Counted from the first letter of the stretch, positions 28,567 to 60,963 are shown. The stretch: 64,000 bases of DNA from Parcubacteria group bacterium (GCA_041659685.1 JBAZXV010000001.1:178771-242770); one strand, 5' to 3'. A program made the numbers and translations. Notes: generated by a model from the letters alone, not told the origin.

Positions 28567-30552
28567 TTATTTAATGGTAATTTCAACTCTTTTTTCGCTC
28601 ATAGGAACTCGAGAAACAAAAAACGGCCAAAAACTAATATCTGCTTTTAAAATGGCCGGATAAGTTTCCGCAAGGGAATTGATTTCACTGGCCTTTTTCC
28701 CCAAAATACCCCTTTTAAAATTTTCAATGTCAACGGCGCTGGCAACTCCAAAATCAGCCTTGGCTCCAAACTTTATCTCCCCTTCTTTCAGTTTTTCCTC
28801 CGACAAAACATATGTTATGGAGTTATTAAAGTTAACGAGCTGGCCCTGCTTGCTGATTTCCGCCTCTACAACTTGTCTTACATCATCGTCCGAAAAAGAA
28901 AGGGTTTGGGCTTTCACTTTCACCGCATATGTAAATTTTTCAGCCTCCGTCCCCGCGCTTTCCGAGGGCGCCGCACTCACCGTTTCCGTCACCACTGAAT
29001 CTTCAAATATTTTTTTACCGGACGGAAGATTTCTGCTTATTCCTTCAATAGCTTTTTTTTCCGCTTCAGCCACCAATTGTTCTTTCGCTTTCTCGATATC
29101 TTGCGCTGACACTATCAATGTTTCACCTTCCGAGCCGCCGCTCATCGCCTTTGAGGATTTGGCGTAAAATTTGTCGTATTTCGGTCCGCCTTCAAAGCCG
29201 GGTATCTTAAAGTCCGCCGGTTCGATATTGAAATCTTTTCCGGCTTTATCGGCCGCAACATCGACTTCAATTGCTCCAGGTTTTGTTTCGGACCCGACTT
29301 TAGTCATTCCGGGGACAATAACCGATTTTTTTATCCTGAATATCTTTCCGTCAGCCGTTTCGAGTCTCGTGGTGCTGACAAGCGGCTGATCGTCCGAACT
29401 AAATTCATTATATATCACGACTTTTCCGGTCGCCTTTCCTCCTCCATTCTTGCTTCCGGTCGCGTTAAAATCCCGTGATTTTTCCTGCGTTATTTCTTCA
29501 ACAGCCGCGGGGATTTTATTTTCGCTCCAATTGATTCCGGCTTGCGATGTGCTGGCGACAATATCCGCAGAACTTGTTTTTTCCTGCCCCTTTAGATGAA
29601 GGACCACTTGAGCCTTCGGGAGATTGAAATATGCCCAGGCAACGCCCGCCATAAGGAGAAAAACAACAGCGAAAAGCATAAAATACAAGCCGACTTTGCT
29701 CTTTATCTTCGTCTCCTTTAATTTTCCGGCCTTTCTTTTCGACACCTTTTCTTGCTTCTGAAGAGTTGGCGAGCCGCCAAAAAATTTTTCCGCCTGATTC
29801 TCAATATGGGCATCATTGTTTGTTTTTTGATAGAATTGTTCCATTGCCTCAGATTTTTTTTCGTCTTCCTGAAATCCTTTTTTTTCTGCTGCGGCAACAT
29901 CGCGGCTCTTTGCTTTTGATTTTGGCCTTGGTTTTGGTTTCGGGCTCGCCACAATATCAGACATCCGGACCGATTTATCCGTTTTTTTGTGTGTTTCGCT
30001 TTTTTCGGATTTTTTCCCCCCCTCTTTTTCATTGTTTAAATCAGCCATTATTTTCTCACTGCGGTCCGAAAATTCTATGTTTTCGATGTTGCTGTCCTTT
30101 GCTTCACCCCCTTCAGAAAACTTTTCCCCTTGACCCTGATTTTGGTTGATCCTGGGAGGATCTTCAAAATAATTTCCGGAACCAAATGATTCTTGTTCGT
30201 CATTCTCTCTCAAAATTTCTTCTCTTTCTCCCTCGCTGATCGTCATATTTTTCTGAAACGAATTTTCCGATATTTCTTCGTCCTCCATTACCGGCCCTTC
30301 AATTTCCCCTTGCACTAAAATTCCCGCCTTTTCTATCAGCTTCTTGCCAATCTTGTCTTGAGTCACGATCATAATTCTTCTTTTTCTCCGATCAGATTCT
30401 TTTTTAAGCAACTTTAAGTTCACAAGACTTTGAAGAAGCAAGGCTCGTTTCGGGGCAACAATAATAACTTCTCCGGCTTCAGCCTTCCTGATTCGATCGA
30501 TTATCGAAGTTATTTCTTCGTCTATGTCGATGTAAATGGTTTTATGAGACAC
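28567..30552 (-). CDS. hypothetical single-pass membrane protein (661 aa) downstream of ftsA
   Basis: Compact N-terminal cytoplasmic domain (KTIYIDIDEEITSIIDRIRKAEAGEVIIVAPKRA...), a ~200-aa charged low-complexity linker, a TM helix (VGLYFMLFAVVFLLMAGVAWAYF) and a ~360-aa extracytoplasmic domain. No motif recognised. Confidence 0.6.
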   Translation of the reverse strand: MSHKTIYIDIDEEITSIIDRIRKAEAGEVIIVAPKRALLLQSLVNLKLLKKESDRRKRRIMIVTQDKIGKKLIEKAGILVQGEIEGPVMEDEEISENSFQKNMTISEGEREEILRENDEQESFGSGNYFEDPPRINQNQGQGEKFSEGGEAKDSNIENIEFSDRSEKIMADLNNEKEGGKKSEKSETHKKTDKSVRMSDIVASPKPKPRPKSKAKSRDVAAAEKKGFQEDEKKSEAMEQFYQKTNNDAHIENQAEKFFGGSPTLQKQEKVSKRKAGKLKETKIKSKVGLYFMLFAVVFLLMAGVAWAYFNLPKAQVVLHLKGQEKTSSADIVASTSQAGINWSENKIPAAVEEITQEKSRDFNATGSKNGGGKATGKVVIYNEFSSDDQPLVSTTRLETADGKIFRIKKSVIVPGMTKVGSETKPGAIEVDVAADKAGKDFNIEPADFKIPGFEGGPKYDKFYAKSSKAMSGGSEGETLIVSAQDIEKAKEQLVAEAEKKAIEGISRNLPSGKKIFEDSVVTETVSAAPSESAGTEAEKFTYAVKVKAQTLSFSDDDVRQVVEAEISKQGQLVNFNNSITYVLSEEKLKEGEIKFGAKADFGVASAVDIENFKRGILGKKASEINSLAETYPAILKADISFWPFFVSRVPMSEKRVEITIK

Positions 30553-33966: not shown

Positions 33967-35529
33967 TTATTCTATTTTTTTCCCCTCTCCGACTCCTGCC
34001 ATTTCGGTTCGCTTTGCTTTTATAATATTTTTATATCCCATGGAAGCGGCGAGGCTTTTTGTCGCAAACTGCCGCCGCGCTCCGTTTTCGATGAAATAAT
34101 ATTTACTGCGATAATTCACCGTCGCGCCGCTCTGAAAAGGAAAAACTTCCCTTGTTTTGTATTTTTTCAAAAATTTCTGTGAAACTTTTATGGCCATTCC
34201 CCGGGAAAAAGTGGCCCGAAAAACGTCTTTCGATATTTTTTTCTTAAGGCCTTTTTCAGAAACATAGAAATAATTTTTATAGTCGCCCGTAAGAAGCGCG
34301 CCTGCTGGAAAACTATCCGCGCTGGAAATAATTTCACCCTCTGCATATCGGGCGCTTTCCCCGTCCGAAATATCGTGCGCAGAGCTCCGGTCTATTGATT
34401 TCAGATCACTGTCCGAGAGAATTATCCTTCTTTTTTTATTTCCTGATAAAATGAAATAATTCCCTCCTAAATCTTTCACGAAGGCGCCGTTTCGAAATTC
34501 CGCCGGCGATCCGCTTGGGAAACTTGCCCATTTTTCGCTCGTAATTTCCACAAAACTTGAAGAGTCATAACTGGAAGAAAGAAGGCTGTCACCGCTTATT
34601 GTCCGCAAATTTCCATTCTCAATAATCCCCCGCTTTCCCTCGGAAGAAACCTTGACCAATGTTCCGGACGGATAATCAAACAACCCTTGCTGGACGGAAA
34701 CTTCCGCATCGCCTCCCGATCCATAAGCAAGAATCTGGTTTTTCGAGATATTGACTACCGGCTGCCGCCCGCTTTTCGAATATCTTTTTCCGTTTGCTAT
34801 TTCATAGGCAGTACCGCCAACTTCGTATGAATATGCGTAATTTGAAAATTCTTCCGAAAACTCGGCGCCCTTTGATCTCATCGCATCCAAATTATCGTAT
34901 ATTCTTTTTCCCGGACAGTCGGTGCTGCCGATATCCCTGTGGCCGATAACTGTGTTATCCAGCTTTTTACCGTGAAACTTTATGTCGGAATTGACGGTGA
35001 TGCTATTATTGGCCGCCAGCCATCCCACAAGTTTTTGAAGCGAATCCTGCGCTTCGGCCGATAATTTTTCGTCATCGTAATTTCCAATAACTGCAATTCC
35101 GATCGATCCCTCATTGTAATTCGTCCCGTTGTAATAAGCGTGTCCGCCGACTGCGCCGTTCCCGCCATAACGACCTTCGAAAATCTTCCCGTCTTTTCCG
35201 ATTATATAATTATATCCGATGTCACCCCATTTTTTGGTGTATGAATGGTATTTATATATTTTCCTGACTTGCTTTGCCGTCGATCCGGAATATGACGCGG
35301 CAGTGTGATGGACAACGATTACTTTCGGATCCTCATATTTCGCCGGCCAAATATTTTTCGTTCTTTTTTCATAGCTTGACTTGGACCAGCTCGATCGCGG
35401 ATATATTTCCGGAACGTCTGAGACGGACAGCTTCGAATTCTTGGCCGAGACAAAACAAAAAGGCGCGCCCGACAGACCCGCGATTGCAATTAATATGATG
35501 ACAGCTTTTTTTGTTTTTATTTTAGTCAA
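33967..35529 (-). CDS. N-acetylmuramoyl-L-alanine amidase (Amidase_2/PGRP domain) with C-terminal repeats
   Basis: Signal peptide, then VVHHTA ... WGDIGYNYIIGKDGKIFEGR ... GHRDIGSTDCPG. Confidence 0.75.
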   Translation of the reverse strand: MTKIKTKKAVIILIAIAGLSGAPFCFVSAKNSKLSVSDVPEIYPRSSWSKSSYEKRTKNIWPAKYEDPKVIVVHHTAASYSGSTAKQVRKIYKYHSYTKKWGDIGYNYIIGKDGKIFEGRYGGNGAVGGHAYYNGTNYNEGSIGIAVIGNYDDEKLSAEAQDSLQKLVGWLAANNSITVNSDIKFHGKKLDNTVIGHRDIGSTDCPGKRIYDNLDAMRSKGAEFSEEFSNYAYSYEVGGTAYEIANGKRYSKSGRQPVVNISKNQILAYGSGGDAEVSVQQGLFDYPSGTLVKVSSEGKRGIIENGNLRTISGDSLLSSSYDSSSFVEITSEKWASFPSGSPAEFRNGAFVKDLGGNYFILSGNKKRRIILSDSDLKSIDRSSAHDISDGESARYAEGEIISSADSFPAGALLTGDYKNYFYVSEKGLKKKISKDVFRATFSRGMAIKVSQKFLKKYKTREVFPFQSGATVNYRSKYYFIENGARRQFATKSLAASMGYKNIIKAKRTEMAGVGEGKKIE

Positions 35530-35581: not shown

Positions 35582-36550
35582 CTAATCCGCTTTTCCCAAT
35601 TCCGCGTCATCGTTGACATACTGAAATGTGCAATTTTCATTTGTTTTTGCATCAATAGCGCTAAAAGCCTCCGGCGAAAGTCCGCCAACCCGCCCCGTCC
35701 AAATAGCCGGCCCCGATTCAAGGATCGCAGCCACAACTTTTTTTCCGTTTCGCTTGTTGGTGACCAGCACTTTTTTCTTTTTATACCACTTTTTTTTGGC
35801 AGTGTTCGCGTCCAGAGCGCGCGTGACTCTCTCCCATTGTCCTCCTTTATACCGATATTCCAATTTCACGCTATCCCCTTTGTCATGGCTCGCCACTGAG
35901 CTCTTATAGCCTCTCTTCAGGCCCTTTAGCTTGTCTCCTTGCTTTGATGAATATCTTATATATTCGCTTCCGATTTTGACATAACCGGATTTAGGAAAGT
36001 CATCCGCCGAGTCAAGGAGTAAAGAAGCGCTGTCTTTTCCCAGTTTTTCTTTGAGATCCGATTCCGGCTCTTTCCAGTCGGCATATTCCCAGCGCATCGT
36101 AACGTAATATTTTTCGTATTTTTCATCGTCTTTATCAAGAGGACCGAATGAACCGTATCCTCCGGCCATGCCATTGCGGCAGGACGACGGAGTGTCCGCC
36201 ATTTTATAGTGACTTGAAGCTGACTGATTTTTTTTCAGCCAAAGATGCTGTTCGCGGGCAATTTTTCCGGACGAATCGGGAAGGGGATACTTTCCTTCAA
36301 CAATGTTTACGCTGCCCCCTGAGCCTTCTCCATTTTCTTCGCTTCCGTTGTTTTGGCCCGCCTGACAGTTTTTAACCGCTGTCTGATATTCGCTCCGGCT
36401 TATTTTTGGGAGATATTTTTGCCAATAAGCCTGGGGCACATTATTTTTTTCCAGCAAATTCTGCCACTTTGATTCTTTAGCGGCGCACAAAGTGGAATTC
36501 ATTCCAAAAACAGCAAACAAAACTAAAAGTATTTTCCAATTTTTTGGCAT
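35582..36550 (-). CDS. secreted protein with C-terminal RlpA-like double-psi beta-barrel (putative)
   Basis: Signal peptide. The C-terminal VLVTNKRNGKKVVAAILESGPAIWTGRVGGLSPEAFSAI resembles the DPBB_1/RlpA signature. Confidence 0.45.
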   Translation of the reverse strand: MPKNWKILLVLFAVFGMNSTLCAAKESKWQNLLEKNNVPQAYWQKYLPKISRSEYQTAVKNCQAGQNNGSEENGEGSGGSVNIVEGKYPLPDSSGKIAREQHLWLKKNQSASSHYKMADTPSSCRNGMAGGYGSFGPLDKDDEKYEKYYVTMRWEYADWKEPESDLKEKLGKDSASLLLDSADDFPKSGYVKIGSEYIRYSSKQGDKLKGLKRGYKSSVASHDKGDSVKLEYRYKGGQWERVTRALDANTAKKKWYKKKKVLVTNKRNGKKVVAAILESGPAIWTGRVGGLSPEAFSAIDAKTNENCTFQYVNDDAELGKAD

Positions 36551-37858: not shown

Positions 37859-39073
37859 TTATTCGTATCTCAATGCTTCGATAGGGTTTAAATTGGCCGC
37901 CCGCCGGGCTGGATAGAATCCAAAGACTATTCCGACTGCCGCCGAAACCCCGAAGGCAAGCAGGATTGAATACGTTGAAATCTGCGTATTTTGGCCGGCA
38001 AATTTGGTGACGGCAAGAGATGCGCCCCAACCGACTAAAATTCCGATTATTCCGCCCAAAAAGGTCAGGGCAACCGCTTCTGACAGAAATTGCAGATTAA
38101 TATAGGCTTTTCTGGTACCAACCGCTTTCCGAAGTCCGATTTCCCTCGTTCTCTCCGTCACATTCATTAGCATCATATTCATTATCCCGATCCCTCCGAC
38201 AAGAAGCGAGATTCCGGCAATAGAGGAAAGCAGAATGGTGAATGTATTTGTCACGCTTGTCGCTGTGGCAATAATATCATTTTGGTTCAAGATATTGAAG
38301 TCCGCCTGCGTCGCATCCGAGATTTTGTGCCTCACAAGGAGGAGATCGGAAATTTGCTGCTGCACCGAAGTCATCGACGATTGGTCCACTGCGGCAATGC
38401 TGATGTCTGAGAGATAATTATTCCCGGTAAGATAATGCTGGGCAGCCGTAATCGGAACATAAACATAGTCGTCCGGATTATTAAATCCTGACCCGCCTTT
38501 AGCTTGCGTCACGCCAACCACCTTGAAATCAACTCCCTTTATTTTTATGGATTGGCCGACCGGATTGGAATTTTCGCCAAAAAGATCATCCCTGGCAGTG
38601 GGACCCACAATAGCCGCTTTTGCCGAGCTTTTGATTTGTTGGTCGGAAAAAAATGAACCGATGTCCATCGTCACGTTTCGGGCTGTCAGATAATCAGCGA
38701 TGGTTCCAACCACTTCCGTGTTCGTATTATTGCCTTTCGCCGTCACCTGATATCTTCGCGAAGATTCCGGAGCCACCGCCTTTACGCTTTGAATTTGATC
38801 TTTGATTGCCTGGGCATCCTCAGTCGTAAGCGTTTGAGAACTGCCGGCACCTTGGCTTATCCCGCCGACTCTCTGGGCTCCGGGCATGACAATGATAAGA
38901 TTGGAGCCGATAGCCTCAATATTGCTTTCGATGGAGCTTTGGGCTCCCTGCCCTATCGCCACCATTGTGATGACGCTCGCTATGCCGATAACAATACCCA
39001 AAATTGTAAGTCCGGAGCGGGCTTTATTTTGAGTCAGGGCCCAAATTGTTTCCTCAATTAAATCTTTTATCAT
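37859..39073 (-). CDS. ABC transporter permease, MacB/FtsX family
   Basis: MacB_PCD-like periplasmic domain between TM1 and TM2, and a C-terminal FtsX domain ending NPIEALRYE. Confidence 0.85.
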   Translation of the reverse strand: MIKDLIEETIWALTQNKARSGLTILGIVIGIASVITMVAIGQGAQSSIESNIEAIGSNLIIVMPGAQRVGGISQGAGSSQTLTTEDAQAIKDQIQSVKAVAPESSRRYQVTAKGNNTNTEVVGTIADYLTARNVTMDIGSFFSDQQIKSSAKAAIVGPTARDDLFGENSNPVGQSIKIKGVDFKVVGVTQAKGGSGFNNPDDYVYVPITAAQHYLTGNNYLSDISIAAVDQSSMTSVQQQISDLLLVRHKISDATQADFNILNQNDIIATATSVTNTFTILLSSIAGISLLVGGIGIMNMMLMNVTERTREIGLRKAVGTRKAYINLQFLSEAVALTFLGGIIGILVGWGASLAVTKFAGQNTQISTYSILLAFGVSAAVGIVFGFYPARRAANLNPIEALRYE

Positions 39074-39130
39074 TTCTTCCTGCCCAGTTAAATGCCTCCG
39101 ACAAAGTCAAGGCAATTTCGCAAGGTGAAA

Positions 39131-39814
39131 CTATTTAACGGATTGAATGTCGCTTTCAATGAGGCCGTCACGGACAGAAATTATCCGGTCTGCGAAATCA
39201 GCCACCTCCATTTCGTGCGTAATAAGAACAATAGTATGGCCATTTTTGTTGAGTTTTTTGAAAGTATCCATGACTTTATGGCTGGTTTTTGTATCGAGAT
39301 TGCCTGTCGGTTCATCAGCCAAAATAATCGAGGGATTGTTTATAAGAGCCCGCGCAATAGCCACTCTTTGCATCTGCCCGCCGGAAAGCTGATTAGAGAG
39401 ATTAAAAAATTTTCCCTCCTCGAGTCCTGTTTGCTCCAATGCTTTTCTGGCTCTCTTCTCCCGTTCTTTATATGGCGTGCCCGTATAAAGCAGCGGCATC
39501 ATTACATTCCGAAGCACTGTTGTCCTGGGAAGAAGATTAAATGCCTGAAAAACGAAACCTATTTTATTTCGGCGCAGATCAGATAATTCATTATCCGAAA
39601 GCATGGAAACTTCTTTTCCGTCCAAAAAATATTCTCCGCTTGTCGGAGTGTCCAATGCCCCCAGCAAGTGCATAAGAGTGGATTTTCCGCTCCCGGAAGG
39701 TCCGATTATGGAAACAAATTCACCTTCCTTTATCCTGAATGAAACTTCCTTAAGAGCGGTTGTTTCCACATCGCCGTTAATATAAACCTTTTTAAGATTT
39801 TTACATTCTATCAT
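39131..39814 (-). CDS. ABC transporter ATP-binding protein (MacB/LolD-type)
   Basis: Walker A GPSGSGKST, signature LSGGQMQR and Walker B ILADEPTGNLD. Confidence 0.9.
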   Translation of the reverse strand: MIECKNLKKVYINGDVETTALKEVSFRIKEGEFVSIIGPSGSGKSTLMHLLGALDTPTSGEYFLDGKEVSMLSDNELSDLRRNKIGFVFQAFNLLPRTTVLRNVMMPLLYTGTPYKEREKRARKALEQTGLEEGKFFNLSNQLSGGQMQRVAIARALINNPSIILADEPTGNLDTKTSHKVMDTFKKLNKNGHTIVLITHEMEVADFADRIISVRDGLIESDIQSVK

Positions 39815-39845
39815 AGTTTATGTTGAGCTTTTCGGAACGCAATAT

Positions 39846-41066
39846 TTAACGGCCGCCGCCGCCCAATCCGGGAATCCTAAGGGATGACGATCCTCCCCCT
39901 GCCCCGCTTGAAGAACTTGCGCTTGTCGCATTCAGGTTGATGGTTTGGGTGACAACTTTATCTCCCTCATTAATCCCGTTTGCAATTTCCGTGTCTGTTC
40001 CGTTTGAAATGCCGATTTCAACGTTTTTCCGCACCGGAGTCTGGCCGTCATTTAAGACTTCCACATATGTTAATCCGCCCTGGCTTTTTACAGCGCTTGC
40101 CGGCGTTATTAAAACATTTTGCTTGACGTCGGTGATTATAGAGGCTGAAACGCTCATTTCCGGCTTAATTCTTGAATCCAGTGAATCAATATTAATCGTG
40201 ACGTTATAAGTCACAACACCTTGATCGATAGTGCCCAGAGAGTCTATTTTTTCAACTGCTCCCGTTGTCTGAAGCCCGTCGACAGCGTCAAAACTTAGCG
40301 AAACTTTTTGCCCTTGAGACACATTCGCCACATCCACTTCGTTAACTTGCACTTGGGCTTTCATCGTTCCAAGATCACCGATGATAATCGGCGCCTGTGA
40401 AGTACTGCTTGAAGAGAGCCGGCTGAGATCATCACCGTTCTTTATGTTTACGGCGTTAACAGTTCCGTCGATCGTGGCCGTTACCTTTCTTTTGCCAGCC
40501 TCGGTCAGAGTGTTGCTGTAATCCGCCTGGGTGGCGGCGAGATTTTTTTCCGCCTGGGTGACTTTATCTTCAGCCGTATCAATCTTGTCCTTCATTACTT
40601 TCAATTGTTTGTCAGTGTAAGTCCCCGGAGTCTTTTCTTCTTTCTTTTTGTTGGCATTATAGTCGGCTTTAGCTGACTTCACATCCACTTTTGCTGATTC
40701 AACGGCGTCTTTGGATTGTTTTAGCGAGGCATTCGCTTTCGCAACGCTAACCGTCAAATCACCGTTGACAATATTAAAAAGAAATTGGCCTTTTTTCACT
40801 TGGTCCCCCACAGCCACCGCCAAATCGGCCACCGTCCCTGTGATTGTCGGATCGACTGTGGCGCTTTGGTCCACTATAATATTTCCGCTTGCAGAGATAG
40901 AGGAAGTAAGAGTACCTTTTTCGACAGCCTGAGTGGTATACTGCGCCTGGGTGGTCGTCGTTTTTGATTTTTTGTACCAGTAATAGCTTCCCCCGGCTAT
41001 TAACAGCACTATCGCAATCCAAACATACTTCCTCTTTTTTCCAAGCATGGAGTGTATTTTTGCCAT
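39846..41066 (-). CDS. HlyD/MacA-like periplasmic adaptor (membrane fusion) protein
   Basis: N-terminal TM helix, a biotinyl-lipoyl-like segment (GTVADLAVAVGDQVKKGQFLF), a coiled-coil hairpin and beta-barrel domains. Start taken at MAKIHSML (41066). Confidence 0.75.
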   Translation of the reverse strand: MAKIHSMLGKKRKYVWIAIVLLIAGGSYYWYKKSKTTTTQAQYTTQAVEKGTLTSSISASGNIIVDQSATVDPTITGTVADLAVAVGDQVKKGQFLFNIVNGDLTVSVAKANASLKQSKDAVESAKVDVKSAKADYNANKKKEEKTPGTYTDKQLKVMKDKIDTAEDKVTQAEKNLAATQADYSNTLTEAGKRKVTATIDGTVNAVNIKNGDDLSRLSSSSTSQAPIIIGDLGTMKAQVQVNEVDVANVSQGQKVSLSFDAVDGLQTTGAVEKIDSLGTIDQGVVTYNVTINIDSLDSRIKPEMSVSASIITDVKQNVLITPASAVKSQGGLTYVEVLNDGQTPVRKNVEIGISNGTDTEIANGINEGDKVVTQTINLNATSASSSSGAGGGSSSLRIPGLGGGGR

Positions 41067-41067
41067 A

Positions 41068-41565
41068 TTAATTGTTTTCACTGCCGCTAAAAACTCGGAC
41101 CAGATCAGCATTCACCACGCCATTGTCTCCCGGGCTTCCCATAACTACGATTCGGTCATCCTTTTTAAGGTCGCCGATTTTAATGTCATCGCTTTGCCGC
41201 TTGATAATAGTTTTGTCCGTCACCGCAACAGTGTTTTCTTTTCCGTCTCTGTCCCTGACGATTATATTATTGTCTGAAATTGAAATAACTGCTCCGGCAA
41301 GCCCATGAGCATTTCTAAAATCCCGACTCTCCGGATCAAATGGCAGGCCGGGCCTCGCCTGCGGTCCCGGCGGAAAATCAGGCCTGATCCGGTGGGAACC
41401 GACAAAGTTTCGCTCGTAATTTTCGCCGAACTTATAGGAAAACCTGGCTTTTTTAAGACCAACCGCCACACCGCCGGCAAAACTGGCAAGGATTACCAAA
41501 AATACCCCTATAGCCAGAGCGGCCACTTTGATCATTTTTGATTTTGTCGCTTCTTGCGTATCCAT
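41068..41565 (-). CDS. membrane-anchored DUF5666-like protein
   Basis: TM helix plus ISISDNNIIVRDRDGKENTVAVTDKTIIKRQSDDIKIGDLKKDDRIVVMGSPGDNGVVNADLVRVF. Confidence 0.5.
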   Translation of the reverse strand: MDTQEATKSKMIKVAALAIGVFLVILASFAGGVAVGLKKARFSYKFGENYERNFVGSHRIRPDFPPGPQARPGLPFDPESRDFRNAHGLAGAVISISDNNIIVRDRDGKENTVAVTDKTIIKRQSDDIKIGDLKKDDRIVVMGSPGDNGVVNADLVRVFSGSENN

Positions 41566-44604: not shown

Positions 44605-46095
44605 TTAATAATTTTTGAATTTTCCTTTTTTCACATCCCTCAAAAATTCCATAAAACCTTCCTGCGCTTCCTGTTCAAACATCGCCCTAACGGCCATAGG
44701 CGTGGTCGCCGGTGATTTCCAGTTGTATATGGGTTTTAGGTTTTTTCTCATGATATAAGCGGTTTTGACCAAAAAGTTCGTGTCGCCCTGCACGGGACAG
44801 GCGTAGATATAGTCTTCAGGATCACCGCTTTGATTAAATCCGCCCTTGACCTCAAAAGTAACCGGCAAACCCTGGTTTTTTATTTTCCTGAACGCCTCAA
44901 CCGGATCCGGATAATGATTGAAATTTTTATTGAGATATTTTATATTCTCGTTTTTTATATCTTTGAGTTGATGAGACTCAACCATCACAGTGCGGCTGAG
45001 TTTCCGGTCAAAAAAACAGGCTCCGCCTTTTTGGGGCTTCAAGGGATTTTGGGCCACAATCTCCATCACCATGTTATATCCCTTTTTCCCAAGCTCAAGC
45101 GCCAGAGCAAGACTGGGAAGATCCACGGCGCAGGTGAGATAACCCAGATCCTCGACGTTATAAGAGAGCAGATCGTCATGAGCAGCCAGAATATCCTCAA
45201 ATTCCCGGCTGGAAAGAAAAAATCTCCTGCCTGTGTCCTTCGGATCAACCCTGAAAATGACATTGTCATGTGTTTTTTGCATGATCATCTGTCCGTGATT
45301 GTGAAGCCTCTTGTTTTTTTCCGTTGTTCGATCATAAAAAAGACTTCCTTCTTTGATATACATCCCGTGAAAACTTCTTTGGATCATGAAATATATCCTT
45401 TGCGGGCTAAACCCGAAAAAATTGAACCGCTTGAATTCATCAAGAATTTCTTCCGCCGTCTGCTCGTTCAAAACGATCAAGGCGCTTTGTTTTTCCAGAA
45501 CGTTGTTTGGATTTTTGTTATTCTGCCTTGCAATCCTGGCGACATCATAAGCCATTTGAAGCATGTGCCGATTGCCAAGGGAAATGCTTCGCATCTCCCG
45601 GGGATCTCTTCCTGCGATTTCCAGAACCTTTTTTTTGGTTATTTCTCTTGCTATTCCCCTTCTTTTCTCAGCCAGTTTTTTTCCTTTTACTCCGCCTTTT
45701 TTTAGTTCCTGAAGAGCCTCCTGGCGGATGTGTCCGACAACCTCGTCGAGAGAGAATTGGCTGAGATCGAGGAGATATTTTGTTCCCAACCCCAAACGGG
45801 TGGCTTCCCCCGCCGCCGTATGCTCCCAGAAAAATTTTCCCTCAAGGATCGCTTTTTCCGAGACCGAAGTTCCTATTTTGTCATCATCAAGCACAATTAT
45901 CCTTTTCTCGTCAATCGGCTCGAGATATTTATAATTTTCGTAGGCGTTAATCTTTGGCTGATCTTTTTTTATCTCGGCAATTGTCGTTTTTCCGGCATTC
46001 TTATAAAAACGATGCAGCATCCATTCAATATACCGCGCCACCGAGATGCGGTATTCCTCAAATGAATCGAGATGAATTTTCGGTTTATTGCCCAT
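44605..46095 (-). CDS. putative sugar-1-phosphate nucleotidyltransferase (UDPGP-like); function uncertain
   Basis: 496-aa ORF with AAGEATRLGLGTKY, resembling the G-x-G-T-R-L nucleotide-binding loop. It lies within the polysaccharide locus. Confidence 0.35.
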   Translation of the reverse strand: MGNKPKIHLDSFEEYRISVARYIEWMLHRFYKNAGKTTIAEIKKDQPKINAYENYKYLEPIDEKRIIVLDDDKIGTSVSEKAILEGKFFWEHTAAGEATRLGLGTKYLLDLSQFSLDEVVGHIRQEALQELKKGGVKGKKLAEKRRGIAREITKKKVLEIAGRDPREMRSISLGNRHMLQMAYDVARIARQNNKNPNNVLEKQSALIVLNEQTAEEILDEFKRFNFFGFSPQRIYFMIQRSFHGMYIKEGSLFYDRTTEKNKRLHNHGQMIMQKTHDNVIFRVDPKDTGRRFFLSSREFEDILAAHDDLLSYNVEDLGYLTCAVDLPSLALALELGKKGYNMVMEIVAQNPLKPQKGGACFFDRKLSRTVMVESHQLKDIKNENIKYLNKNFNHYPDPVEAFRKIKNQGLPVTFEVKGGFNQSGDPEDYIYACPVQGDTNFLVKTAYIMRKNLKPIYNWKSPATTPMAVRAMFEQEAQEGFMEFLRDVKKGKFKNY

Positions 46096-49913: not shown

Positions 49914-50772
49914 CTAAAGCTCTCCCCGCATCAGCTTGTTGAGCCGCTCCTTCACTTCTGCATCGCTCGGTTCGCCTGTTTCTCCGGTTGAAACCACCGT
50001 TTTTTCCTGATCGCTTTCCGCTATCGGAAGATTGGACGGAGCGACATTCTGCATATCCCGCGAAGTAATAATCGGTTCGGGAGCCTCTTCCTTTTTCGTC
50101 ACAGCCGAAGTTTCCGCTTCAGACATCTTAAAAACTTTTTTTTCCGGCACAATAACCGGCGAAATTAATGTTTCCGCTGATTCTTTTTTCACTGCAATCT
50201 CGTCTGGAAAATCACTGCTGCCGCGCGGCATCCCGAACGCTTCAGAAAACAGCCAGAAAAGAAAATACAGCAGAAATCCAATGCCGAATCCCCAGCCGAC
50301 ATTTCGGATTACGTCCGGCTTGACCGGGCTCTGAGAAACTTGCGGATCGCTTACGAGTATATATTTAAACGGCGATCCGCCGTAAAGATCTCTCGCATGG
50401 GACGCGATTTTTTCCGGCAAACCGGAAATAACATCTTCTGCCGGTTTTATATCCGCTTCTCCCGCCAGAAAAATAACGGTAATCGTCGAAGAATTTGAAC
50501 TAAGCTCCGTATGGTCGTAATCCTTTGCATCGCTTCCCAGAATATTACCCTTGAAGCTGGGACTATTCATCATTTCTGCCGTGTTTCCCGCCTCAAGATA
50601 GAGATTCTGTCCGGCGGTTGCCGAGTTTCCGGACGGAACAATTACGATCTTTCCGGTTACCTGCCAGTATTTTGTGACAAAGAGCGAGTATAAACGCTGC
50701 CAGCGCAAAAATCAAGGCGGCGAATATCGCCCGGCTAAGTAAAATTTTAAATTGGCCTTGCTGCTGAGGCAT
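49914..50772 (-). CDS. Wzz-like (polysaccharide co-polymerase) 2-TM protein, apparent +1 frameshift near 50679-50681
   Basis: ATG at 50772 gives MPQQQGQFKILLSRAIFAALIFALAAFILAL (TM1) in one frame. The 264-aa ORF (49914-50708, TTG start in the track) continues FVTKYWQVTGKIVIVP ... and carries TM2 (VGWGFGIGFLLYFLFWLF). Removing one T of CTCTTTGTC fuses the two. Confidence 0.5.
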
Positions 50773-55630: not shown

Positions 55631-56083
55631 TTATTTGCGCTTACGCCCGAATGGATCAGGCGTGACTTTCCAGGCGGTGACGAAGAACTCCTGGGCAGCA
55701 TAATCCCCTGTGACGGGACTGATGACGCCAACCTGGATCTTGGCCCATTTCACGGCACCGAAATCAAACTTGAGGATGTAGGTGTTGCCACCCGCATACT
55801 CAACCTTGCCGTCTTTCCAGTCGCCGTCGATATTATAGCGGGCGACCACGAAATCCCAATGGACCCGACGATCAAACTCGATCGCCATGCGGTAGCAAGT
55901 AATCCCGGAAACTGGCCCTGGTTCATTGTCTGGCCAGAGACCCTTCACAGTCCCCATAATTTGCCATCTGGGCATATCGTCCACGTATCTCACCCAGCTA
56001 AAGTCGGCCGCTTGACTACAGACTGCCCCGGCCAGCAAGAGAGCAAACCACACAAACAAGCAGACTATGCATTTTTTAAACAT
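55631..56083 (-). CDS. secreted hypothetical protein (150 aa), GC-rich island
   Basis: Signal peptide MFKKCIVCLFVWFALLLAGAVCSQA with predicted cleavage before ADFSW. No motif recognised. Confidence 0.55.
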   Translation of the reverse strand: MFKKCIVCLFVWFALLLAGAVCSQAADFSWVRYVDDMPRWQIMGTVKGLWPDNEPGPVSGITCYRMAIEFDRRVHWDFVVARYNIDGDWKDGKVEYAGGNTYILKFDFGAVKWAKIQVGVISPVTGDYAAQEFFVTAWKVTPDPFGRKRK

Positions 56084-56101
56084 AACTCACAACCTCGCAG
56101 T

Positions 56102-56614
56102 TTATTGAATTTCAATATTGATGTTGCCGCCGCCGTTTTCCATGGTGACAGCTATGCCATACATCCCAAAGGCCAAGTCTGAGTTGGTTCCCCAGTATTT
56201 CATGACCTTTTCAGGCCAAAAGGAGAAGAGAAACATTCTCTCGACATCCAGAGCATCGTTGACATTCGCTCCCCGAGCAGATGCCACATAAACAAGAGAT
56301 GTTTTGATGAGGTCTTTAGCCGCCTTTTGATCCGGTGGCATCGAGGCAAAGAGGGACTTTATTTTCTTCCCCGTTTCATCCGCGGTCATAATGACCGTGA
56401 TCCTGCCGCCAATGGTCATTTTCTGAAAAGACCGCGATTCCGAATACCAGTGTCCGCTGGTGAATTCGAAACCCTGCTCTAAAAAGGATCCGGTCGCCAG
56501 AATCGCCGAATGGGTCAAGCTGCCGACTTTTTCTTCACTGGCATTGGAAATATTCGCCAGGCAGAAAGTCGCGATGAGGACCATAATAGAAATTAAAAGA
56601 GCCGATTTTTTCAT
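56102..56614 (-). CDS. secreted hypothetical protein (170 aa), GC-rich island
   Basis: Signal peptide MKKSALLISIMVLIATFCLANISNA. No motif recognised. Confidence 0.55.
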   Translation of the reverse strand: MKKSALLISIMVLIATFCLANISNASEEKVGSLTHSAILATGSFLEQGFEFTSGHWYSESRSFQKMTIGGRITVIMTADETGKKIKSLFASMPPDQKAAKDLIKTSLVYVASARGANVNDALDVERMFLFSFWPEKVMKYWGTNSDLAFGMYGIAVTMENGGGNINIEIQ

Positions 56615-56841
56615 GGTTTACCTCTTCATTTAGAATATTCGGGAAAGATAGGCTTATCTCCCGAAAGATGCGCTTAAGGAAGCGAATTTTTCGAAAGATT
56701 AACTTTGTCCTCCTTTGCAGAACGCTATAAACGTAAACCCGCGAGTAGATGATAATGTTCTGCTTCGGCAGATTTCGCTCCGCCGAAGAATTAGAGAATG
56801 ACTTAGGAGCCAGTTCGCGGAGCTTCATTTTTTAACTCAAT

Positions 56842-56870
56842 ATAATATCATTTCGCCGCAAATTTGTCAA
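56842..56870 (-). promoter_or_regulatory. candidate promoter for 56102/55631 operon
   Basis: On the minus strand, TTGACA (56870-56865), a 17-nt spacer and TATTAT (56847-56842). This implies a ~220-nt leader. A divergent TTGTCA-17-TATAAG lies on the plus strand (56864-56892). Confidence 0.4.
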
Positions 56871-56983
56871 GTATTATTTTAGCTTATATAAGGCATTATT
56901 TTCTAATTTAGCATATATTTAATAAATTATCTATAATCTATCTCATGGATTTGCTTTAAGCAATAGGATCTTTCTCCAAAAAC

Positions 56984-57011
56984 TTGCCATTCCTGGGCGT
57001 ATGGTTATAAT
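56984..57011 (+). promoter_or_regulatory. candidate proximal promoter for the L,D-transpeptidase gene
   Basis: TTGCCA (56984-56989), a 16-nt spacer and TATAAT (57006-57011). A GGAGG SD lies 8 nt before the ATG at 57043. Confidence 0.4.
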
Positions 57012-57042
57012 GGGATATTAAAAAACAAAAGGAGGGCGAGGG

Positions 57043-57510
57043 ATGAAAAAATTTCATCTTTTGGTTTTTTTTCTTGTTCTTTTCAGCGCTTCCGCTCTCC
57101 GCTCCGAAACATCGGAAGAATTTTGGAGAGGGAAAGTAATTTTCGTCAACCAGTTGACCCAGGAGCTGATTACCTATCAGGACGGCAAAGAATTGCGCCG
57201 ATTCGATGTGATTATGGGAGACGCAAAATTCAAGACTCCGCAAGGAATTTACCGCGTGCAACACAAGGACCGGAAATATTGGTCCAATCAATACAGCACC
57301 TGGATGCCCAATTCTCTTTTTTTCATCTGGGACGAAAAAACCCGGATGGCCATCCACGCCGGTATTGTTCCGCTGAACAAGGAAATTACCCGCCAAAAAG
57401 CCACCCATGGATGCGTGCACGCGAGAAACAATGATGCGGAGTGGCTGTTCGACTGGGCGGAAGAAAAAGCAACCAAAATCATAATCTACGGGGATCGTTC
57501 CCAAGACTGA
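57043..57510 (+). CDS. L,D-transpeptidase (YkuD domain), secreted
   Basis: Signal peptide. The YkuD catalytic region reads IHAGIVPLNKEITRQKATHGCVHARN (H ... HGC motif). Confidence 0.8.
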   Translation: MKKFHLLVFFLVLFSASALRSETSEEFWRGKVIFVNQLTQELITYQDGKELRRFDVIMGDAKFKTPQGIYRVQHKDRKYWSNQYSTWMPNSLFFIWDEKTRMAIHAGIVPLNKEITRQKATHGCVHARNNDAEWLFDWAEEKATKIIIYGDRSQD

Positions 57511-57547
57511 CAGTCCTGATGTTGCATCAGGACTGTTTCATTTTTTC
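57511..57547 (+). terminator. rho-independent terminator of the L,D-transpeptidase gene
   Basis: An 11-bp stem CAGTCCTGATG/CATCAGGACTG with loop TTG, followed by a T-rich run. Confidence 0.7.
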
Positions 57548-57565
57548 TCCTATTTTAATTTGTAT

Positions 57566-57695
57566 CAGTAAACTAGTTTACTGGTTTGAAAAACCTAGAC
57601 ATCCGATGTCTTTTGACTTATGAATATTTATTCAGAAACTTTTTATAAGAAATAATTATTTTCGGTATCCTCAAGCGTTTGGACATCCAATGTCC
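57566..57695. repeat. cluster of palindromes: an 18-bp perfect palindrome plus two related 15-bp inverted repeats
   Basis: CAGTAAACTAGTTTACTG (57566-57583), AGACATCCGATGTCT (57597-57611) and GGACATCCAATGTCC (57681-57695). Confidence 0.7.
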
Positions 57696-57721
57696 AAAAT
57701 AGACAATTTTTCCAAATTAAA

Positions 57722-57755
57722 GAGCCGTATCAGTACTGACACGGCTCAATTTTTT
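57722..57755. terminator. hairpin terminator downstream of 57819 gene (bidirectional-looking)
   Basis: GAGCCGT-N12-ACGGCTC with T-rich flanks on both strands. Confidence 0.55.
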
Positions 57756-57818
57756 CTTTGCCCCCTTTGTTACCTCCTTATGGGGGCGGTTATTTCGTGG
57801 CCGGGGTCCGGCCGGGGA

Positions 57819-58301
57819 TTACTTAACGTTCAGCGACGGTGGCCAGGGGTTGCCGTTGGGATCTAGTCCCCGGTCCTTGTCGGCATAGAGACCACCCTCC
57901 AGTTTGTAGACATATTGACCAGAGTTGACTGCGCCCAGGGATTCTACCGGAATCAACAGCCAGTATTTCCCGTGCTTAAACTGGATGCCGGTGTAAGAAC
58001 CCATATCAACCTTTTCGCCAGTCTTGACACTCCGGTTGGGCCCAAACAAGACCACCTCGGAGGGCTGCCAGCCTTGAGAATTCTTCACCGCGAAAGAAAT
58101 ACTGTTGCCTTCCTTGACGGCCGTAAATACGGTGCCCGCGGGCGGCAGAAACGTTTTGGACTTCGCGGTGTCAACCACGATTTTGACGTTACCTTGGGCC
58201 AAAGCCGTGGTCGTCATAAAGAACATGGAGGCGCAGAGCAGGACGCTCATGAAAACTCCGATACCCAAAATCTGCCACTCGGTTTTCCTTAATTTATTCA
58301 T
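57819..58301 (-). CDS. secreted hypothetical protein (160 aa), GC-rich island
   Basis: ATG at 58301 follows a GAGAGGAG SD. Signal/TM segment WQILGIGVFMSVLLCASMFFMTTTALA. The track start at 58448 overlaps the upstream gene. Confidence 0.55.
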   Translation of the reverse strand: MNKLRKTEWQILGIGVFMSVLLCASMFFMTTTALAQGNVKIVVDTAKSKTFLPPAGTVFTAVKEGNSISFAVKNSQGWQPSEVVLFGPNRSVKTGEKVDMGSYTGIQFKHGKYWLLIPVESLGAVNSGQYVYKLEGGLYADKDRGLDPNGNPWPPSLNVK

Positions 58302-58395
58302 TACCGATCTCCTCTCAGTGTATTCCCCGCTAATGCAGGGAAGTTGTGTTCCGCGCCATTGGTTTTCACCTTTAGCGCGGAACGGGTTCATTGGG

Positions 58396-60963
58396 TCAGT
58401 CCTGATCAGGTCCCGCTTGTCTGACATCCTTTTTTTCAGGAACCGCAACAGGATTCTGTGGCTTTTCCAGAAACTGGGGCGGAGCGGACGACTCTGCCTT
58501 GGGTGTTTCCGGAGTTATTGGTTGTTCCGGCTTAACTTCTGCCGGAGTTTGAGGCGGCATAGCAGGCGGTTCCGCCGGCTTGGCCTCTGGTTTTTCCGGA
58601 ATTGATGGAATAATTATTTTTCCGTCCGGAACCTCAGGCAGAACAGGCTGTTCCACCTTGGGCGCATCCGGAACCGGCGTCGGAGCCTGGGCAGGTTGCT
58701 CAGGCTTGTCCGGAGTGATTGGTTGCTCCGGCTTGGTTTCTTGCGGAGCCGGGATTGGTAGCGCCGGAACCTTGATCGGCGTTTCCGGCTTGACTGCCGG
58801 ACACCGCTCCCTCAACTTCTTTTTACGTTTCGGCGGTTTTTTTACTTTTACCGGCGGAGCTTTTTCAACTGCGGGAGGACAGATAATTTTCGGCTCAGCC
58901 GGAATTATCGGTGCTGGAGGTAAAACCGCAGGAACAATCGGCTCAATTTCCGGCGTGTCCCAAGGAACTTCTTTGGTCCCGCATTCCACCATCGCGCCCT
59001 GGATGGTCCAAAATACGCGATAAAAATCGACAGAATCCAGATAGTAGTTTCTTTTCCCAAAATATCGGCCGTAGGAGAGGTATACTCCCCCAACTTCGAC
59101 CTGCACTTTGCCTCCGCCGCCCTTGGGGCCATGGCGGAAACGCAGAAAGGCCGGGCCCGCCGATATTTTGAACAGGTCATCGCACGGCGATTGATACAGG
59201 ACCGGCATAATACCGGCATGGAAAAACCCGTCCGTCTCCCAGAGCAGGAAGGCCTTCGCTCCCGGGAGCAGCTTGCCATATTTTCCGCTCTTCACCGGCT
59301 TCCACCAAAATTCCGTGGCGGCGTCAACCGTTGCATAGCGGCGGGACATCCGATAGTTAAAATCCCCTTTTTCCCAGCGTCGGCCCGCAAGAAGGCCAAT
59401 CGTCGTATCCGTCCCGCCCCAATCATGGCGGGTGATAATCTCCGGCCAAATGCCGAATGAACGGCTACAGCCTGATCCGGAGAATTCGGACGGGTGAACT
59501 TGATACTCATACCACCCGAACTTTGCCGCAGGTCCGACTCCCAAAAATACGTTGGGCGCCAATTCTGCTTCGAACGGCCGCAAAGCGATATTATGCCATG
59601 CAAACCGTCCCGAGAGATTCGGCTCACGGCTGATTCCACCTCCAATCGGTATTTCTACCCGTTTCGGATCGACCCACCAACGAATGCGCTGAGGAAGATC
59701 GATGTAGTCATTGAAGGTTTGACCTTGGCCTTTGACATCGGCAACAAACTGCCGATAGGGAATCTCACCGCCGATGTTGGCATTGTTTTCCCGGACATAC
59801 GACTGTCCATAACTTTTTTCGCTCTTCGCCGGGTTTGGATAGGCGCCGACTTTTTCATCTTTCCGGAAGGATTGCCAGAAAGCAAAATCCTTCTCGAAAA
59901 GCTCTACGCCATTTGTCTCGGTAGAGAGGCAAGGCGTGTTGTGATTGCGCAGAACGGTGGATGTAAATAATGCTGATCCAGCGCTCATTGCCATCCCAAT
60001 CGGCTCAGGACTGATTGTCAGCCCCCCATCATCGGCAAAGCGAACATAGCCACGGCGCCGGTCGGGTTTTTTGCAGGCCTCGACTAATTCGCCACGATCT
60101 GCCGCATAGCGGATCCCGTCCATCGGGACATAATACTTATTAAGGCCGGCAGCCCGAATAACTCCATCGAGCTGGCCTTTGTTGATGAGGCTCGTTCTCT
60201 GGAGACTATCAAGGCTCGTGCCATAGGTCTCGGCAACCAGAGCCATATACTCAGGATCTTTTTCTTCATACATTCCGCCCTGAAGTTTGGCATACTTGGT
60301 GCCTTCCAACCCCCAAACAACCAACTCACCACGTTTGTCTCCGCCAATGGCATTGTTGAAAAAACGGTCGCCACTGACAATTTTCCAATCGGAGGCAGAA
60401 CCAGTGAGTTCGGAGTTGAAATAGACTACGACCGGAAGCTTGCCATTCTTGTCGCTGCCGGACGGCAGAATAAAACCGTCCTCAATCCGACCAGAGCCGG
60501 AATTGACGGCCACCGCCTTCATGGTCTTTCCCTTAGCAAATTTAAGCGCAGGTGTGGGGATAAAACCTCTCACGGCAGTGACTTTTTTGGAGTCTTGCGG
60601 AGGTTTTTTGGTTGACCATGAATCACGAGGGGTGCAGAAGGGGGATTTCCATAATTTCCCATCTTCCCTATCCCCGTTCTCCGGGTTTTCCCACTTGTTG
60701 GGTTTGCGGGCCGTGTAAAACTGCCCGCTCTCCTGGTTCAGCCTTTCCTGGTAGATTTGGCCGTCACGAGAATTCTTCCACTCGCGGACCACACCGGGAT
60801 CGGCTTTTTCGGCGGAAGCGGCTTCTGAAACCTCTCCTCCGCTGCCGGAGCACTTATACCATCCCGGTTCGGAACCGGGAATTGGGTCTGCAGCTTTTGC
60901 TTGGCCGCTGGCAAAAACCAGCGAAAGGCCGAGCAGAGCAGCGATAAAAGACTTTCTGACCAT
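58396..60963 (-). CDS. large secreted protein (855 aa) with Pro-rich C-terminal tail, GC-rich island
   Basis: Signal peptide MVRKSFIAALLGLSLVFASGQAKA, a beta-strand-rich central region and a C-terminal ~170-aa Pro-rich region with KPEQPITP twice. Confidence 0.65.
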   Translation of the reverse strand: MVRKSFIAALLGLSLVFASGQAKAADPIPGSEPGWYKCSGSGGEVSEAASAEKADPGVVREWKNSRDGQIYQERLNQESGQFYTARKPNKWENPENGDREDGKLWKSPFCTPRDSWSTKKPPQDSKKVTAVRGFIPTPALKFAKGKTMKAVAVNSGSGRIEDGFILPSGSDKNGKLPVVVYFNSELTGSASDWKIVSGDRFFNNAIGGDKRGELVVWGLEGTKYAKLQGGMYEEKDPEYMALVAETYGTSLDSLQRTSLINKGQLDGVIRAAGLNKYYVPMDGIRYAADRGELVEACKKPDRRRGYVRFADDGGLTISPEPIGMAMSAGSALFTSTVLRNHNTPCLSTETNGVELFEKDFAFWQSFRKDEKVGAYPNPAKSEKSYGQSYVRENNANIGGEIPYRQFVADVKGQGQTFNDYIDLPQRIRWWVDPKRVEIPIGGGISREPNLSGRFAWHNIALRPFEAELAPNVFLGVGPAAKFGWYEYQVHPSEFSGSGCSRSFGIWPEIITRHDWGGTDTTIGLLAGRRWEKGDFNYRMSRRYATVDAATEFWWKPVKSGKYGKLLPGAKAFLLWETDGFFHAGIMPVLYQSPCDDLFKISAGPAFLRFRHGPKGGGGKVQVEVGGVYLSYGRYFGKRNYYLDSVDFYRVFWTIQGAMVECGTKEVPWDTPEIEPIVPAVLPPAPIIPAEPKIICPPAVEKAPPVKVKKPPKRKKKLRERCPAVKPETPIKVPALPIPAPQETKPEQPITPDKPEQPAQAPTPVPDAPKVEQPVLPEVPDGKIIIPSIPEKPEAKPAEPPAMPPQTPAEVKPEQPITPETPKAESSAPPQFLEKPQNPVAVPEKKDVRQAGPDQD

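Follow-up and report, generated by a model that had tools for sequence, protein, structure and literature searches.

The DNA analysed here is a stretch of 64,000 nucleotides from a Parcubacteria group bacterium (GCA_041659685.1, JBAZXV010000001.1:178771-242770), called the window in what follows, in which five open reading frames (ORFs) form an island between 55.6 and 61.0 kb. This report centres on two of their products, an 855-residue secreted protein, here named BIG, and a minimal secreted L,D-transpeptidase (LDT) of the YkuD family. With middling confidence in the explanation as a whole, we read the region as a lineage-restricted surface-protein cassette that has been inserted, between a Wzz-like gene and Wzy_C, into a cell-wall polysaccharide cluster of the rhamnose type, in a host from the Moranbacteria/Parcubacteria of the candidate phyla radiation (CPR). 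BIG and a small secreted partner, both hypervariable, would be the core of this cassette. Sec would export BIG, cleavage would leave A-D-P-I-P-G... as the mature start, and a predicted 12-stranded barrel of the outer-membrane/autotransporter type, followed by a helix and a Pro/Lys-rich tail, would hold it in the envelope. The adjacent YkuD protein of 155 residues would act on peptidoglycan as a secreted enzyme that is conserved and has a transcription unit of its own. Most likely it remodels peptidoglycan in general, by 3-3 cross-linking or a related L,D reaction, in the wall that the cluster builds, and it is probably not dedicated to BIG anchoring. To this pairing, a hypervariable barrel-bearing surface cassette beside a conserved general peptidoglycan LDT, we give an even chance.

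Homologues of BIG are few. A word-indexed search returned six among 5.8 billion protein clusters, an exhaustive hidden Markov model search returned 12 representatives among 1.84 billion proteins, a genome scan found BIG in 3 of 185,579 species genomes and a metagenome scan gave one duplicate locus and nothing further. When the five island proteins were scanned against Pfam and NCBIfam, a family match was obtained for the LDT alone, and BIG matched neither collection. The nearest genomes sharing the locus are those of Candidatus Moraniibacteriota. The same gene order was read in every related locus with legible context, namely a DUF4012 gene, a Wzz-like gene, BIG, a gene for a secreted protein of 120-160 amino acids, usually a YkuD gene of 155-158 amino acids on the opposite strand, and Wzy_C. 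The small partner lies immediately downstream of BIG in every locus seen, an extra gene for a small secreted protein stands between LDT and Wzy_C in some loci, and beyond Wzy_C the GT4, TIG, GT4 and rml genes follow in conserved order. In the window, the cassette is accordingly flanked on one side by the DUF4012 and Wzz-like genes and on the other by Wzy_C, two GT4 glycosyltransferase genes, a TIG-domain protein gene and four dTDP-rhamnose (rml) genes. In another genus of Patescibacteria, rml genes have been proposed to make rhamnose wall polysaccharides in a single-membrane envelope (PMC11809585).

Between loci, the flanking genes are 57-88% identical in pairwise comparisons, BIG is 25-35% identical in most pairs, and sequences of the small partner for the most part resist alignment. 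This low identity of BIG and partner against conserved flanks marks the two as a hypervariable cassette. For the LDT, pairwise identities amount to 67-76% among four of five loci and to 43-46% when compared to locus L006. A comparison of the BIG proteins from loci L004 (10001-12283) and L005 (9214-11550) suggests that the first ~100 residues have been swapped as a module, since the two are 78% identical and yet have unrelated N-terminal modules, the start being AQS↓ADPIPG...GWYRC in L004 and AHA↓DEYGAQC (DEYGAQCREMDAWG...) in L005 (arrows mark cleavage sites). The second, motif-less N-terminal module is also found in P0009 and P0011.

The order of parts in BIG is a signal peptide, a conserved N-terminal motif, a variable region, the predicted 12-stranded beta-barrel, a helix and a Pro/Lys-rich tail. 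A full-length AlphaFold model was too poor for use, with a predicted local distance difference test score (pLDDT) of 40.5, and the N-terminal ~430 residues, modelled at low confidence, give no functional clue. Long antiparallel strands were nevertheless present at residues 455-645 (pLDDT 55-81), in the same strand pattern as in a model of the domain alone. This domain model, made for residues 425-672 (58948-59691, minus strand) from an alignment of 11 sequences, reached a pLDDT of 82.6 and a predicted template modelling (pTM) score of 0.74 and shows about 12 long strands and then a helix by DSSP. A Foldseek comparison agrees (E 2e-5, template modelling score ~0.5), the nearest folds being those of barrels which export or display adhesins. 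We therefore regard an outer-membrane/autotransporter-type barrel of 12 strands in the second half of BIG as a good structural prediction.

In predicted fold, this barrel resembles the 12-stranded beta-domains of type Va autotransporters (BrkA, 3qq2; Hbp, 3aeh; AIDA-I, 4mee; EspP; NalP). In contrast to these, BIG has no sequence similarity to the type (PF03797, PDB profile), its barrel ends at residue ~646 of 855 and thus is not C-terminal, the helix comes after the barrel and not before it, and a Pro-rich tail of 183 residues follows. In domain order BIG, with a topology that we infer, comes nearer to the type Ve inverse autotransporters (intimin, invasin) than to the classical ones. Unlike inverse autotransporters, however, it has no LysM, no Ig-like or lectin passenger and no PF11924 match, and the sequence signatures of neither type were found in it.

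Cleavage sites were assigned by the -3/-1 rule together with the alignment of homologues; a home-made scorer is crude and lists rule-conforming sites only. BIG begins with MVRKSFIAALLGLSLVFASGQAKA↓ADPIPGSEPGWYKC, the site obeys the rule and the mature protein starts with ADPIPG. Among the 11 homologues that carry this N-terminal module (variant A), the cleavage column is the only rule-conforming one common to all, with AKA↓AD, AQS↓AD, GQC↓AD, AKC↓AE, AKS↓AE, AWG↓AE or AWS↓AA as sites. As a rule-conforming site falls on the same aligned column in all carriers of the module, the Ala-Asp start of BIG, which the earlier note on this DNA had predicted by eye, is well supported. The predicted mature start is AD in six, AE in four and AA in one of these members; Ala at +1 is invariant and +2 is acidic in 10 of 11. 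Where the earlier note had asked about conservation of Ala-Asp, most homologues thus have a start of the form Ala-[Asp/Glu], and three variant-B members, which begin with MPSE, DEHH or DEYG, lack the motif. Alignment A1 shows A25, P29, G30, E32, G34, W35, Y36 and C38 to be invariant and position 26 to be D or E (A in P0016), and the consensus among homologues reads A-[D/E/A]-P-[I/V]-P...GWYxC. The motif occurs once per locus, in BIG only, and conservation spans 14 residues ending in the invariant Cys, well past the needs of signal peptidase. By its pattern of conservation, then, the Ala-Asp start of BIG is part of a longer N-terminal motif.

At the other end, the tail of BIG contains a conserved basic cluster, PPVK[VI]KK...K.LR.RC. 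In the window the tail is ~90 amino acids longer than in homologues, ends in GPDQD and has no tandem repeats at the DNA level. Sortase anchoring of BIG of the window was rejected, because no island protein contains LPxT[GASN] or a hydrophobic segment after the signal peptide. Lipobox anchoring was likewise discarded, the island signal peptides being without a lipobox, as was anchoring through a C-terminal Lys in the manner of Lpp, which BIG of the window does not have. Most homologues (among P0003-P0006, L005 and L006) end in P-[K/N]-x-M (PNAM, PKVM, PKPM, PKAM or PKTM), and the Lys near their end brings to mind LDT acceptor sites of the Lpp type.

The LDT matches Pfam PF03734 (YkuD) over positions 2-146 of 146 of the profile with 74.7 bits (cut-off 23.4) and an E-value of 1.5e-20, and consists of a signal peptide and a catalytic domain, nothing more. 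Together with the strand of the ORF, this match substantiates the earlier claim of a YkuD LDT in the middle of the island on the opposite strand; as for every enzyme named here, its activity is a predicted one. H105 and C124 are shared by all of 12 aligned sequences (alignment A3). Within the motif T-H-G-C, His122 is replaced by R in L004 (13000-13470) and by N in L006 (8001-8477). Two residues after the catalytic Cys, this clade has an invariant His126 and not Arg. In the DpaA study, transpeptidase-active LDTs of E. coli are reported to carry Arg at this position, which DpaA-like amidases and LD-carboxypeptidases do not (10.1101/2021.02.21.432140). In the PDB the LDT has only distant relatives, which are uninformative on specificity; the best is an uncharacterised protein of the ErfK/YbiS family at E 5e-6. 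Some proven transpeptidases have Asn in the place of that Arg, so that His126 is a reason for caution and no disproof of transpeptidase activity. The automatic JGI name, 'lipoprotein-anchoring transpeptidase ErfK/SrfK', is generic, because the best curated NCBIfam matches are far below their cut-offs. Close relatives of the LDT with known context were all found in this locus; the search reached close relatives only, and this exclusivity therefore carries little weight.

The LDT adjoins BIG in six of eight informative loci (the window, L002/L003/L012, L004/L009, the P0006 contig, L005 and L006/L008), and the most divergent locus is among them. In the other two, the P0002 contig and L014 (the P0011 locus), BIG and its small partner occur without an adjacent LDT. 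Two short LDT contigs stop directly after the LDT and are uninformative on adjacency to BIG, and in L013 a transposase-like gene intervenes ahead of the contig end. This gene (L013 4056-4640), which has CxxC zinc-finger motifs, comes right after BIG and the small gene, where the LDT stands elsewhere. Between the window and L006, BIG is 73% identical and the LDT only 46%. L004 and L005 both keep the LDT, with TRGC in L004, where BIG has the Ala-Asp start, and THGC in L005, where it has not. Judged from these comparisons, the BIG cassette is decoupled from the LDT, the phylogenies of the two being discordant. The co-occurrence of this LDT with proteins starting in Ala-Asp, which the earlier note had asked about, is frequent but imperfect: the LDT is missing beside BIG in two loci, stands beside a BIG without the motif in one, and differs from BIG in phylogeny.

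Features of the island and of BIG; positions are those of the window
Feature	Coordinates	Strand	Basis or remark
BIG, 855-aa secreted protein	58396..60963	-	ORF call
BIG signal peptide, residues 1-24, cleaved AKA↓AD	60892..60963	-	-3/-1 rule and homologues
BIG mature N-terminal motif A-D-P-I-P-G-S-E-P-G-W-Y-K-C, residues 25-38	60850..60891	-	alignment A1
Predicted 12-stranded beta-barrel, BIG residues ~439-646	59026..59649	-	structure model
Predicted alpha-helix right after the barrel, BIG residues ~647-662	58978..59025	-	DSSP, both models
Pro/Lys/Glu-rich C-terminal tail, BIG residues 673-855, 28% Pro	58399..58947	-	sequence composition
Small secreted partner, 160 aa, signal peptide ...TALA↓QGNV	57819..58301	-	as called on public contig
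Minimal secreted YkuD L,D-transpeptidase (LDT), 155 aa	57043..57510	+	Pfam match
170-aa secreted protein, function unassigned, ...ISNA↓SEEK	56102..56614	-	divergent from LDT
150-aa ORFan, possible signal peptide, ambiguous cleavage site	55631..56083	-	this genome only

Consensus scans suggest three separate transcription units in the island. BIG and the small partner would form one, closed by a terminator-like hairpin at 57747-57722; the LDT would form a second, convergent with it and bounded by a promoter-like site (56984-57011) and a terminator-like hairpin (57509-57537); and the 170-aa and 150-aa genes would form a third, which diverges from the LDT and has its promoter-like site at 56870-56842. 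The G+C content at third codon positions (GC3) is 0.55-0.67 in the five island genes and 0.41-0.52 in the flanking polysaccharide genes, the LDT with 0.56 being shifted modestly from the flanks. The BIG gene has 54% GC in a genome of ~43% GC. Homologous 169-aa genes occupy the position of the 170-aa protein in L006 and L016, and this protein has no family match in Pfam or NCBIfam.

The 150-aa ORF had been put forward as a second protein with an Ala-Asp start, from a site CSQA↓ADFSW, which could not be confirmed. Among 5.8 billion protein clusters it has no homologue but itself. In L006 just 99 bp separate the 169-aa homologue from Wzy_C, which makes the 150-aa ORF an insertion specific to this genome. 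NCBI and JGI call it as 85 aa from Met66, a form without a signal peptide. The first ATG lies 18 nt after an upstream stop and is preceded, at 9 nt, by GAGG, and the long form is plausible on these grounds. Two rule-conforming sites are present in it, AGA↓VCSQ and SQA↓ADFS, and the crude scorer favours the first, a cut that does not expose Ala-Asp. The ORF has a good ribosome-binding site, a GC3 of 0.64 and a hairpin after its stop, and is overlapped by a 212-aa ORF of the other strand. The mature starts of the other island proteins are SE (170 aa), QG (160 aa) and LR or ET (LDT). Ala at +1 with Asp or Glu at +2 is common after signal peptidase I cleavage, and about one in five exported proteins of E. 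coli starts with A-[D/E]. Two Ala-Asp starts in four proteins, one of the two doubtful, are therefore not clearly above chance.

Elsewhere in the window, a secreted protein of 520 aa with an N-acetylmuramoyl-L-alanine amidase (Amidase_2) domain is encoded at 33967-35529 and is a further peptidoglycan-active enzyme. MacB-type ABC permeases and a HlyD/YknX-like membrane-fusion protein are encoded at 37859-41111, with no TolC-like partner in view; in relatives (L002 670-5608 and L004 2414-7020) these genes lie directly upstream of the DUF4012 gene. Four ORFs of the window, 28567-30552 (661 aa), 44605-46095 (496 aa), 35582-36550 (322 aa, with a signal peptide) and 49914-50708 (264 aa), have no Pfam match, and the last is the counterpart of a conserved gene for 274-287 aa in all related polysaccharide clusters.

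The earlier note had gone further and proposed that the LDT tethers the Ala-Asp proteins of the island to the wall. The YkuD enzyme would form an acyl-enzyme with a tetrapeptide stem of peptidoglycan and hand this stem over to mature BIG, at the alpha-amino group of Ala25, and possibly also to the 150-aa protein, a proposal that we now think unlikely, though not negligible. It has a sound precedent in Hyphomicrobiales, where LDTs join outer-membrane barrels to meso-diaminopimelic acid through a conserved N-terminal Ala-Asp (PMC12729407; PMC10787603); in the summaries that these papers give of Godessart et al. (2021), Ala-Asp tethering is described for Omp25/Omp2b of Brucella abortus with Ldt4 and also for Agrobacterium, and Coxiella uses Gly-Gly N-termini for attachment to peptidoglycan (PMC12729407; PMC10787603). 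The island agrees with this precedent in a secreted YkuD enzyme that is real, in the predicted barrel of BIG and in its Ala-Asp site with Ala-Glu in relatives, the invariant Ala and the nearly always acidic +2 counting in favour of tethering. Adjacency of the LDT in most loci, including the most divergent, speaks for it as well, as does the raised GC3 common to the island genes, LDT included. Furthermore, the island proteins have neither LPXTG nor a membrane helix as another anchor, and some other mechanism of retention is thus needed. On the other hand, L005 keeps an intact LDT beside a BIG that starts AHA↓DEYG, two loci have BIG and no adjacent LDT, and the two genes do not co-vary across loci, have discordant phylogenies and belong to separate putative transcription units. 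The LDT has the invariant His where transpeptidase-type LDTs have Arg (10.1101/2021.02.21.432140), and H122 is changed to R or N in two loci with Ala-Asp. The other candidate substrate is an ORFan whose cleavage site is ambiguous, +2 of BIG varies between D, E and A within a conserved block of 14 residues, not two, and starts of this kind are, as said, common. The systems also differ in that ~410 residues lie between the N-terminus and the barrel of BIG and that the host is a CPR bacterium without a recognised outer membrane. Another known system to compare is the Braun lipoprotein system of E. coli (ErfK-YbiS-YcfS and the amidase DpaA); there, too, YkuD-family enzymes act on protein-peptidoglycan links, but in our case an Lpp-like protein and a C-terminal Lys on BIG of the window are both lacking.

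The reading that we prefer, a barrel-bearing cassette beside a general LDT, has points against it as well. A small genome that keeps the LDT at the cassette in most loci could mean a dedicated role for the enzyme, and the sequence of BIG offers no other recognisable anchor. Patescibacteria are regarded as having neither an outer membrane nor its assembly machinery (PMC12102498; 10.1101/2021.05.31.446380), which makes the barrel prediction notable and leaves the cellular location of the predicted barrel unexplained. The barrel is predicted from only 11 sequences, hydrophobic residues alternate clearly in the later strands but weakly in strands 1-7, no barrel family is matched in sequence (no PF03797 at E <= 0.1), and a profile of the barrel (alignment A2) found nothing among PDB sequences at E <= 10. 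That the barrel is embedded in a membrane we infer. The same shallow alignment, poor full-length pLDDT, weak alternation and lack of homology would fit the possibility that nothing specific is at work, the barrel being an AlphaFold over-prediction of a beta-rich soluble wall protein, the LDT a housekeeping enzyme and Ala-Asp a coincidence. The pLDDT and pTM of the domain model are high for a hallucination, however, and conservation of the N-terminal motif goes well past the requirements of signal peptidase, and we hold this possibility to be rather improbable. We are equally doubtful that BIG serves an episymbiont in contact or attack, in which case its barrel would enter the outer membrane of a diderm host or form a pore, its N-terminal region and Pro/Lys-rich tail keeping it on the wall of the symbiont, with hypervariability the outcome of arms races with hosts or phages. 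Hypervariable BIG and partner alleles that move between lineages, the IS-type (insertion sequence) transposase gene abutting the cassette in L013, a fold nearest to adhesin-exporting or -displaying barrels and the wide description of CPR bacteria as epibionts without an outer membrane (PMC12102498) would all suit such a role. There is no direct sign of host association for this genome, though, no toxin, adhesin or pore-forming family is matched in Pfam or NCBIfam, and the low-confidence N-terminal half yields no hint of function. Most far-reaching, and in our view decidedly improbable, is that this Moranbacteria clade makes a true membrane-type 12-stranded barrel whose Ala-Asp/Glu end is fixed covalently to peptidoglycan by the neighbouring LDT. 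If it did, the cells would have either an unrecognised outer lipid layer or a wall-anchored barrel in the membrane of a host, as a bridge for episymbiosis.

LDT-mediated tethering of proteins is already known, and YkuD enzymes are ordinary. What is new is the CPR setting, the predicted outer-membrane-type barrel without sequence relatives beyond a dozen proteins, and the diversifying cassette in a wall-polysaccharide locus, and we judge the barrel to be of more interest than the tethering idea. A large part of bacterial diversity consists of Patescibacteria, whose almost unstudied envelopes are taken to possess a single membrane and to be without machinery for beta-barrel assembly. In such an organism the prediction of a barrel is unexpected, and it offers a handle on how these cells display surface proteins and on whether outer-membrane biology survived or was reinvented in this phylum. 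Should the tethering idea prove true, LDT-mediated anchoring of proteins, known from Proteobacteria, would reach across to the opposite side of the bacterial tree; should it prove false, the locus would still show cleanly how a surface cassette diversifies in a lineage of episymbionts.

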